Below are positions 20,396 to 30,215 of a DNA stretch of 64,000 nucleotides, piece by piece. Positions within the stretch are counted from its first letter, which is position 1, and each line of letters starts with the position of its first letter. The notes beneath the pieces were generated by a model that saw only the letters and a program-made list of their open reading frames with translations, ran no database searches and was not told the origin of the DNA. This DNA comes from a virus, in IMG/VR virus record IMGVR_UViG_3300017917_001434, positions 1-64,000 of that record, one strand, 5' to 3'. Both the position numbers and the translations under genes were made by a program.

Positions 20396-21506
20396 TATTT
20401 GTTTTCATCCATGGGTAGGATTAGATATTGGTCCCCAAGGTGAGTTTAAGCCTTGTTGTAAATATCAAAACAGTATTGCCAATAACATTGATGATTACTA
20501 CAACAGCAAAGAATTAGCTGATCTTAAAGATGCTTTCTCACGAGGAGAACGGCCAACTGGTTGTCAGCGTTGTTGGAGTGATGAGGATGCCGGTCATCCT
20601 AGCAAACGTTTAGATGACTGGAAATATATTTTTAATGAAACAGTTCCTAACACAGACAAACTAAAAGTTTTAATGTTTGCCTTTGGTAATAGTTGTAATT
20701 TAGCCTGTCGAACCTGTAACAGTTATTCGTCGTCAACTTGGATCATTGAATCGAGAAAAGTTATCGATTTATTCCCAGACTCTAAGATATATAAGCACCA
20801 GAGATTTTATCAAGACATCTATTTACTCGATCGTTTAAAGTCTTTAGGATCAGACATCACCGAGCTGTATTTTCATGGTGGCGAACCATTCATTGCTGGC
20901 ACTGCTGAACACTTAGATTTTTTAAAATATTTCCTTACTCAACGGCCTGAAAATATAACTTTGCATTACATGACAAATGTCACAATATTTCCTCAGCAAG
21001 AATTTTGGGATATTTGGAAACAATTTAAAAAAGTTAACATACAGTTGAGCATTGACGGTATTGGTTCACATTTTGAATATACTCGTTGGCCTGCGAAATG
21101 GACCGACGTTGAATTAAATATCAATCAATATAAACAGTATTCAGGCGACAATATAAAATTATCAGTGGGACACGTGATTAGTATTTTTACAGTCTACTAT
21201 CTGCCAGAATTTTATAAATGGCTATTACAAAATAAATTTGTTGATCCGTTTATTAGTCTGCTAGCAGACCCTGAAATCTATAATATTAAAACTTTACCCA
21301 AAGATGTTAAAGATCGTGTTGCTGAAAAATTGACAAAATATAAGTTTGACACTATAATACAGTATATGTATTCTGAAGATTTAAGCGGTACATTTGGTCA
21401 AACCGCAGAGTATACAAGAATATTGGATCAACAGAGAAATCAAAATTTTGAAAACACTTTTCCAGAATTTAATCAATTATTAAAGGAATCAGGATGCCAA
21501 ATTTAG
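20382..21506 (+). CDS. Radical SAM protein with N-terminal SPASM/twitch-like Cys cluster
   Basis: CNLACRTC and GGEPF; N-terminal CFHPW..PCC..CQRC. Confidence 0.88.
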
Positions 21507-22114
21507 TACCAATGGTTTTAGAGCGTACATCAGAAGGTGAACGCAGTTATGATATCTACAGTCGATTGCTCAAAGACCGTATTGTCATGCTAGACACTGA
21601 AGTTAGTGAACATTCAGCCAGTCTGCTAGTAGCACAGTTGCTATTTTTAGAAGCAGAAAATCCAGAACAGGATATTTTGTTTTACATTAACAGCCCAGGC
21701 GGTAGTGTTACTGCTGGTCTAGCAATTTATGACACTATGCAGTTTATCAAACCAGACGTGCGTACTATTGTAATTGGACAGGCTGCCAGTATGGGCAGTT
21801 TTCTAGCACAAGCCGGTGCACCAGGTAAACGTTATGTGTTACCCGAATCGCGTACAATGATTCACCGTGTGAGCTCGGGCACACGCGGCACAGGCGGTAG
21901 CGTGTATGTACAGGAATTAGAGTTTGAAGATGCACGTCGACACTTAGAAGAAAGCAAACGTTTAAATCAACGTCTGACAGAGTTGTATGTTAAGCACAAC
22001 TCTAAAGGCAAGGCCTATGATGAACTTGCCGAGGCAATGAAGTTTGATACCTTTTTATCAGCTGAACAGGCAGTTGAATATGGCCTAGCGGATGAAATCA
22101 TTACCAAACGCTAA
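21494..22114 (+). CDS. clpP: ATP-dependent Clp protease proteolytic subunit
   Basis: [31 protein letters not shown] (catalytic Ser), MIH. Confidence 0.95.
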
Positions 22115-25797: not shown

Positions 25798-25838
25798 TTG
25801 ACCGATAAACTGTTATGTAGTACAATTAGCAATAAATA
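25798..25838 (+). promoter_or_regulatory. Tandem sigma70 promoter and late TAAATA motif upstream of the tmRNA locus
   Basis: TTGACC(25798)-N17-TACAAT(25821); TAAATA 25833-25838. Confidence 0.6.
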
Positions 25839-26106
25839 TTCACATGAACGGTGAATATAGATTAAACAATTTAGGTGAATTGGAGGTGTATCGTGAAGGT
25901 TATTGGCAACCAGCATAACATATTTTGGTACCATAAACTTGGCTGTACCTGCCCAATTTGTAGTGTATGATTAAGTTTATTAAACGATTATTTCAAGGTA
26001 AGGACTATGTAGGTTATAGACCTTATTGGTTTAAACAGCGTAAACACTAAGGTAAGGACTTCAAGACGGCGGTTCGATTCCGCCCAGGTCCACCAAAAGG
26101 TATCTT

Positions 26107-26211
26107 ATGGAATATATTTGGATAACAGTATTTGTTTCAATTCATATTTGGGCATTATTAAAATATGAATCAGATGAAAAAATAGACCAAATGTGGCAAG
26201 ATAATTTTTGA
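26107..26211 (+). CDS. Putative 34-aa peptide in the tmRNA intervening segment
   Basis: AAGG 6 nt before ATG; MEYIWITVFVSIHIWALLKYESDEKIDQMWQDNF-TGA; ends 1 nt before tmRNA G1. Confidence 0.45.
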   Translation: MEYIWITVFVSIHIWALLKYESDEKIDQMWQDNF

Positions 26212-26428
26212 TGGGCCTGACCAGGTTTCGATTGGGGTAGATAGAATAAGTGCGCTCGAGAGTCGACTGACGTAATCAGCGAAAAACTAGTAAATGCAAA
26301 AGCAAATACTTCTAACGTAGTCAAAGTATCTATGGGCCGTGGCTTCCGCTTCGGTACTCGTAATACTGAGGCTTTAGCAGCTTAGTACTGCCGTTCGGGG
26401 CAGTTATGCCTTGTTACCCAAAATAACC

Positions 26429-26449
26429 AAACCCGCTTCGGCGGGTTTG
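26429..26449 (+). terminator. Terminator-like hairpin at the end of the tmRNA coding piece
   Basis: AAACCCGC-TTCG-GCGGGTTT. Confidence 0.75.
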
Positions 26450-26567
26450 CTACCTTTATAAAGAGGTTGACAAATACACTAAATCGTGTATAATTATAAT
26501 TGTAGATGAAACATTCTACACTTTATTGACGGTGCATTGTGCATCATTTAACATAAGGAGAAGTAAT

Positions 26568-28295: not shown

Positions 28296-28589
28296 ATGAA
28301 GTTAAATCCCATACATGACCGTGTGGTCATTCGACGTATCGAAGCCGATACACAATCTGCTGGGGGTATCATAATCCCAGATACAGCCACAGAAAAACCC
28401 GATCAAGGAATCGTCTTAGCAGTAGGACAAGGTCGCCGTACCGAAGATGGTGTACTGGTGCCTATGACTCTTAAAGTTGACGATCGAGTATTGTTTGGCA
28501 AGTTTGCAGGACAACAAGTTAAGATTCAAGGTGAAGAACTACTGATTCTTCGCGAAGAAGATATTTTTGCAGTAATTGAGGAGGTTTAA
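28296..28589 (+). CDS. groES: Co-chaperonin GroES
   Basis: [17 protein letters not shown] mobile loop, [14 protein letters not shown]. Confidence 0.95.

Positions 28590-30215
<1,626 letters not shown>

Follow-up and report, generated by a model that had tools for sequence, protein, structure and literature searches.

Structure of the permuted tmRNA gene

A permuted tmRNA gene with the tag AKANTSNVVKVSMGRGFRFGTRNTEALAA was identified by ARAGORN at 26003-26476 (+ strand) of the 64-kb stretch of DNA analysed here (the window), which is the first part of an 89.6-kb IMG/VR record. The CheckV completeness of the record is 22%, and such a value for 89.6 kb points to a very large phage as the source. 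Tail-fibre, virion-structural and DNA-ligase PHROG families are present in the window. The tmRNA was also recognized by Rfam, with scores of 104.2 bits for RF04321 (tmRNA_permuted; gathering threshold 47) and 88.3 bits for RF01850 (beta_tmRNA; gathering threshold 84), and a search of the 89.6-kb record was in agreement. The order of the parts is permuted, the sequence CAGGTCC-A-CCA (26085-26095) being located upstream of GGGCCTG (26213-26219), and the acceptor stem contains a G3.U70 pair. No blastn match to the tmRNA region was found among GenBank phages. The gene and its borders are composed of the following elements.

25798..25826, + strand: promoter-like site TTGACC-17-TACAAT, 10/12 in a consensus scan, of putative function
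26034..26095, + strand: acceptor piece of the two-piece tmRNA (ARAGORN, Rfam and relatives)
26068-26084, + strand: T-arm (read from the sequence)
26085-26091, + strand: acceptor 3' strand CAGGTCC (read from the sequence)
26092, + strand: discriminator A (read from the sequence)
26093-26095, + strand: CCA (read from the sequence)
26096..26212, + strand: intervening segment (IVS, or spacer), 117 nt, GC 0.25 (read from the sequence)
26213..26427, + strand: coding piece of the tmRNA, G1 = 26213 (ARAGORN and Rfam)
26296-26385, + strand: tag reading frame for AKANTSNVVKVSMGRGFRFGTRNTEALAA, with alanine resume codon and tag end ALAA (ARAGORN)
26428..26449, + strand: GC-rich terminator hairpin closing the tmRNA gene, its position kept in relatives
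26467..26494, + strand: consensus promoter TTGACA-16-TATAAT, 12/12, of the next gene, marking the end of the tmRNA unit

The promoter-like site at 25798..25826 is likely to be the start of a transcript that carries three mini-ORFs together with the tmRNA precursor. Protein-quality-control genes, named here from their sequences, flank the tmRNA gene, with a ClpP-like gene upstream (21494-22114) and GroES- and GroEL-like genes downstream (28296-30215). tmRNA tags ending in ALAA direct tagged proteins to ClpXP.

The open reading frame in the intervening segment

The IVS contains an ORF preceded by an SD-like sequence.

26097..26100, + strand: SD-like AAGG (spacer positions 2-5), within the 5' arm of the closing stem and 6 nt 5' of the ATG
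26107..26211, + strand: 34-codon ORF encoding MEYIWITVFVSIHIWALLKYESDEKIDQMWQDNF, ATG at 26107, TGA at 26209-26211 (ORF listing)

The initial annotation had described this arrangement in the 117-nt spacer, from AAGG through ATG to TGA, and all of its coordinates hold in both the sequence and the ORF listing. The ATG is located at spacer position 12, with 11 nt between CCA and ATG, and the ORF fills the spacer to a fraction of 0.87. A single base (T26212) separates the stop codon from G1, and this stop is the conserved TGA of the leader that precedes G1. The encoded peptide of 34 aa is hydrophobic in its N-terminal half and acidic in its tail. Residues 4-18 are strongly hydrophobic, with a mean Kyte-Doolittle value of 2.14, and this stretch would fit a membrane helix.

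The IVS is predicted to fold into a single long, imperfect hairpin extending the acceptor stem, with a free energy of -19.7 kcal/mol (z -1.2 vs shuffles). In the minimum-free-energy fold, 26096-26106 pairs with 26198-26209, giving 11 closing pairs. The SD of the ORF, which is only a 4-mer, is located within this closing stem, and the last five codons and the stop lie in the stem-constrained 3' arm. Since the fold is no stabler than that of shuffled sequences, selection for a hairpin fails to explain the sequence of the IVS. For the same reason, pairing of a U-rich arm with an A-rich arm is not supported as the sole cause of the hydrophobic and acidic halves of the peptide.

The GC content of the IVS is 25%, compared with 40% for the phage. 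When the IVS was shuffled 20,000 times at the dinucleotide level, 0.6-1.0% of the products contained a complete ORF of 34 codons or more. Under a lenient definition, in which any start was accepted and read-through was allowed, the frequency was 6.6%; both estimates concern a 34-codon ORF that was picked post hoc, after being seen. The initial annotation had raised the concern that chance can make a 35-codon frame; with an occurrence in 1-7% of the shuffles, the frame is nominally unusual, but not decisive alone.

Codon usage was analysed with a frame-specific trinucleotide model trained on 22,000 codons from 58 long ORFs of this phage. The in-frame log-likelihood ratio of the 34-codon ORF was 15.2, compared with 14.8 +/- 5.6 for real 34-codon gene pieces and 5.1 +/- 4.4 for stop-free shuffles of the ORF, of which 0.7% reached 15.2 (P 0.007). 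The codon usage of the ORF is gene-like. When applied to the ORFs of other spacers, this test was significant only for a 124-aa gene; the training sets there were small and the test had little power, and even ORFs with clear signs of purifying selection gave non-significant values.

Homologues of the 34-aa peptide

Conservation of the ORF had been named in the initial annotation as a check, and here the ORF fails. In a HMMER search of 1.84 billion representative proteins, only the peptide itself and two long proteins (855 and 1134 aa) were recovered. We rejected the latter two as relatives of a small peptide, because one showed 38% identity over 22 residues and the other contained no scorable stretch. 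The 90% cluster of the peptide consists of one member from one contig, making it a singleton. No Pfam match was obtained; the best PHROGs match (phrog_5054, E 0.032) was not significant, and the best ESM Atlas score (0.81) was inside the range reached by shuffled proteins. Two degenerate DNA probes, back-translated from the peptide, detected nothing in IMG/VR. Searches with the spacer and the peptide (blastn and tblastn) against the 89.6-kb record and retrieved loci, the set of loci being larger for tblastn, detected neither a repeat nor a paralogue.

Replacement of the spacer in close relatives

Relatives were retrieved by three scans, all with exact patterns. The T-arm plus acceptor sequence detected more than 119 loci in IMG/VR, and the tag core ATGGGNCGTGGCTTCCGCTTCG detected 19 loci in IMG/VR and 30 loci in the JGI metagenomes. 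The tmRNA tag of this family is unusually long, about 28-30 aa, with the core ...VSMGRGFRF.... Its core DNA is exact in all of these 19 and 30 loci, the same sequence having served as the search pattern, and five different tRNA-like domains were present among 20 tag-family members inspected. These observations suggest that the tag-core DNA may be constrained at the RNA level besides the peptide level.

The phages with the ...VSMGRGFRF... tag are syntenic with the window, having 103-aa and 89-aa genes upstream and groES downstream. The closest relatives of the window among the matches listed are L195, L202 and L206. In these three loci, the identity to the window is as follows.

Mini-ORF region: 90-94%
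Acceptor piece: 84-87%
Coding piece: 78-93%
IVS interior: shuffle baseline

The IVS of L195 (137 nt) has the same beginning as that of the window (AAAAGGATTTTATGGA...), but its reading frame codes for an unrelated peptide of 50 aa and continues through G1. The IVSs of L202 (76 nt) and L206 (57 nt) are without SD and without ORF. Flanks that are 78-94% identical around unrelated spacer interiors indicate that the arms have been conserved and the IVS interior exchanged as a cassette. The suggestion in the initial annotation that cargo can insert between the tmRNA halves is therefore supported, the spacer ORF being unrelated or absent in the closest relatives. The start of the spacer is shared by several loci: in L190, L195 and L189, CCA is followed by AAAGG(A) and then by ATG at spacer position 12, as in the window.

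Mini-ORFs upstream and genes downstream of the tmRNA

Three mini-ORFs are located between the promoter-like site and the acceptor piece.

25844..25918, + strand: mini-ORF A, 24 aa, MNGEYRLNNLGELEVYREGYWQPA
25893..25970, + strand: mini-ORF B, 25 aa, GTG start after GGAGG (25882-25886), CTCPIC motif
25967..26050, + strand: mini-ORF C, 27 aa, KDY[VI]GYRPYWFK, last codons in the 5' end of the acceptor piece

Mini-ORFs A and C had been noticed in the initial annotation and are both present, the latter ending in the conserved 5' end of the acceptor piece. At the protein level, mini-ORF A is 92-100% identical in L195, L202 and L206, and 65-73% identical in L183, L181 and L086; the homologue in L183 is a separate ORF. 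The motif WATAAATA just 5' of mini-ORF A shows no enrichment across the window (9 occurrences vs 16 expected). Mini-ORF B, which overlaps mini-ORF A in the +1 frame, is kept in L195, L202 and L206 and occurs alone in L096, L102 and L140. Mini-ORF C is kept in L202 (70% over 23 aa) and deleted in L195. In more distant phages, A-like and B-like peptides occur singly. Further small ORFs were observed in this region of other loci, namely, an extra basic peptide (MAKFRAHHPRSIRATARR...) in L202 and L096, and small hydrophobic ORFs upstream of the tmRNA in L190 and L062.

On the downstream side, between the tmRNA and groES, the segment 26526-28180 of the window encodes a 351-aa protein with a DGQHR motif and a 185-aa protein, neither of which matched Pfam at E 0.1. 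This two-gene cassette is absent from all of the 11 syntenic tag-family relatives compared (11/11). It is present in 58 other phage loci with 67-79% identity, none of which has a tmRNA within 6 kb according to ARAGORN, and we therefore rejected the DGQHR protein as a marker for tmRNA relatives. The cassette appears to move on its own.

Spacer ORFs in a wider set of two-piece tmRNA genes

All retrieved viral and metagenome loci were scanned generically for permuted tRNA-like domains, which gave 83 distinct IVSs. A closing stem (at least 6 pairs between the first 14 and the last 20 bases) was detected in 80/83, and in 76/83 a stop triplet occupies positions -4 to -2 relative to G1. In 14 of the 83, ranging from 110 to 398 nt, an ATG ORF that begins at IVS position 12-24 takes up at least 77% of the IVS. 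Of these 14, 13 are AT-rich (GC 0.23-0.36), and the fourteenth, L204, has a GC content of 0.43. The 116-nt spacer of L204 (Ga0007876_1021992) contains a tRNA-like T-arm fragment, GCAGGTTCGAATCCTGT, recalling the tRNA-Ala cargo of PMC11915505, and its open frame may be incidental.

Every IVS longer than 121 nt is ORF-filled (8/8), whereas the filling is 25-63% in the GC-richer IVSs of 101-119 nt that do not belong to the ORF class, with the exception of L071 (91%, non-ATG start). An SD-like 4-mer in the first 16 nt is present in 10/14 ORF-bearing IVSs and in 4/69 of the others (Fisher 3e-7, for sequences that are related to one another).

Two families of spacer ORFs and one larger gene provide real coding sequence in other spacers. 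The ORFs of L156 and L190 (31 codons) share 77% amino-acid identity, with 15 differences at 19 synonymous sites (pS 0.78) and 10 at 74 non-synonymous sites (pN 0.135). Those of L077 and L103 (65 codons) gave a dN/dS of 0.11. The substitution patterns show strong purifying selection in both families. The 398-nt IVS of L100 and L153 contains an ORF of 124 aa (L153:2791-3162), a member of a family that comprises at least 28 protein clusters and has 15 invariant residues, including YHAT, GL, NW and EY, but no corresponding Pfam family. In 24 IMG/VR loci the 124-aa family is found inside a tmRNA gene in L100 and L153 only, and the other 22 homologues are outside, indicating that an ordinary phage gene was captured by the spacer slot in L100/L153. 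The phage context of L190 includes a tail spike and ribonucleotide reductase, and that of L153 a T4-type single-strand-binding protein.

The ORFs of L195, L077/L103, L112/L101, L176, L154 and L189 have no stop within the spacer and continue past G1 into the tRNA-like 5' strand (...GPDxVSTG...). Cleavage of such a read-through ORF by RNase P would give a message without stop codon, which would be a trans-translation substrate of its own tmRNA.

The T-arm plus acceptor sequence was found at only 15 places in 185,579 species genomes, in tRNA-Ala genes and in Cupriavidus tmRNA genes. The Cupriavidus tmRNAs have an identical tRNA-like domain, and their IVS is a bare stem-loop of 18-32 nt ending in CTTCTGAT. 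This bare form indicates that the closing stem and the TGAT leader are the ancestral processing hairpin, at the tip of which the phage genes grew. In Cupriavidus consociatus LEh25, three contigs (L225, L228 and L234) share the tmRNA T-arm/acceptor sequence, and a further match is located where a contig ends. In one copy the spacer measures 18 nt rather than 32 nt. The extra copies may be located on mobile elements.

Probable coding capacity of the window spacer

The interpretation in the initial annotation is supported in part: that the precursor may double as an mRNA is reasonable, since spacers of this type of phage tmRNA gene do carry protein-coding genes. The 34-codon ORF is a plausible candidate member of this recurring class of spacer genes. 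On balance, we consider it probable that the ORF is a real and young cassette gene, an orphan for a small membrane-type peptide, which is translated from the tmRNA precursor.

The most serious alternative, which we regard as possible but rather doubtful, is that the spacer is non-coding, an AT-rich filler at the hairpin tip that is open by chance, with AAGG and TGA being parts of the stem and the leader. AAAG after CCA and T(G/A)AT before G1 are indeed kept in ORF-less spacers too, the stem and the stop triplet being nearly general in the wider set; moreover, the peptide is a singleton, two of the closest relatives (L202 and L206) are ORF-less, and the lenient chance estimate is 6.6%. However, given the open frame, the codon usage is gene-like at a P value of 0.007, and the G that makes AAAG into AAGG recurs, together with ATG at position 12, among the ORF-bearing spacers. 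The consistent filling of the spacers longer than 121 nt, compared with the partial filling of most GC-richer spacers of 101-119 nt, and the purifying selection on two ORF families also count against a non-coding reading.

A second alternative is that translation acts in cis only, in the manner of a leader peptide, the ribosome holding the closing stem open and thereby timing or gating the cleavage of the precursor, and the peptide itself being irrelevant. The location of the SD and the stop in opposite arms of the closing stem (5' and 3', respectively) would suit such a role, as would the unrelated peptides of close relatives in which the start and end positions are yet kept; in addition, several spacer ORFs run through G1, so that cleavage and translation must compete. 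We nevertheless judge this role clearly unlikely, because the amino-acid sequences of two spacer-ORF families are under purifying selection, the 124-aa spacer gene belongs to a family that exists outside tmRNA genes, and 69/83 spacers as well as those of Cupriavidus are ORF-less, showing that processing needs no ORF.

The idea of the initial annotation that the halves behave as separate genes is not supported, and that the two tmRNA halves are independent transcription units with an ordinary gene between them under its own signals is very unlikely: cassettes are exchanged between the halves and a standalone gene family entered one spacer, but the consensus scan detected no promoter- or terminator-like site on the + strand of 26096-26212, merely 11 nt separate CCA from ATG and 1 nt the stop from G1, and the spacer ends pair beside the acceptor stem in 80/83 IVSs, which is relevant only in a single precursor.

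Proposed expression of the spacer gene

In this family of phage tmRNA genes, the IVS is a hairpin in which a closing stem of approximately 11 bp extends the acceptor stem and the tip tolerates insertions. In many phages this tip houses a small protein gene, with an SD-like sequence in the 5' arm and ATG just past the stem, and with a stop within the cassette, at the conserved TGA/TAA of the 3' arm, or beyond G1. The translation, timing, membrane location and function of the 34-aa peptide are inferred, and we envisage four steps. A single transcript would start near 25798, with the three conserved mini-ORFs aboard. Ribosomes would then load on AAGG/ATG during transcription, when the 3' arm, needed in transcribed form for the closing stem, is still approximately 100 nt away. 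Once termination at the TGA (26209-26211) is over, the closing stem could form. Finally, RNase P cleavage at G1 and 3' processing to CCA would free the two tmRNA pieces, and the spacer would be discarded.

A broader proposal, which we consider unlikely, is that the two-piece tmRNA genes of phages are dual-use: the spacer would be a general slot for exchangeable genes that itself supplies the ribosome-binding site and the stop codon, and the highly transcribed precursor would first serve as mRNA. The membrane peptide of the window would be made along with the tmRNA, beside the ClpP and GroES/GroEL genes, and work with this proteolysis and rescue set, and the read-through ORFs would be self-made tmRNA substrates.

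Stable-RNA precursors are regarded as non-coding and the spacers of two-piece tmRNA as waste. If the spacer is a translated, swappable slot, it would allow compact expression of phage accessory peptides from a strong RNA-gene promoter, and the same molecule would be subject to competition between translation and RNA maturation. A whole class of small genes would then escape annotation pipelines in which RNA genes are masked. The window yields a concrete candidate in the 34-aa membrane-type peptide, and the three close relatives that differ in the cassette constitute a natural experiment for its function.

Comparison with known systems

In the tRNA punctuation of mitochondria, coding stretches are bounded by tRNA-like structures, and RNase P and 3' processing set the ends of the messages. 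This is a normal route of mRNA release, whereas at the present locus the coding stretch is inside one RNA gene and its release is putative.

Phage-borne two-piece tmRNAs have been published for the OM43 phage Melnitz and for pelagimyophages (PMC9004378, PMC11915505), and in the two-piece family the precursor is cut into two pieces with removal of the intervening segment (PMC11915505). The gene order, the G3.U70 pair and the tag end ALAA of the window are those of the permuted tmRNAs of RF01850 and RF04321. In the published descriptions consulted, the IVS is regarded as discarded RNA (PMC9004378, PMC11915505), whereas in the window and its relatives it contains SD-led ORFs, some of which are under selection. 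The literature searched, to which the founding two-piece tmRNA papers did not belong, contained no description of protein-coding ORFs in tmRNA IVSs; as far as we found, this class of spacer-borne small genes is unpublished.

An ORF in an excised segment of a stable-RNA precursor has a parallel in the intervening sequences of 23S rRNA in Coxiella and others, which contain the ORF for S23p; this protein is reported to be apparently not made (PMC4990558). That system concerns rRNA and an ORF apparently without product, whereas the present one concerns tmRNA and includes two ORF families that show purifying selection. Intron-form tmRNA genes, in which a LAGLIDADG homing endonuclease gene may be carried by a group I intron (PMC11915505), likewise have a protein gene nested in a part that is missing from the mature RNA. 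In that case, a mobility gene is located in a self-splicing intron of the T-loop, whereas the genes described here are small and diverse, without any intron, and the segment would be removed by end processing of the tRNA type. Further precedents are the cargoes reported in tmRNA intervening sequences, namely, an intact tRNA-Ala gene and a repetitive element (PMC11915505), which reveal the same tolerance of large IVS insertions with retention of the tmRNA. Those cargoes are single RNA or repeat oddities, whereas the spacers analysed in this study contain recurring protein-coding cassettes that share a ribosome-binding site.
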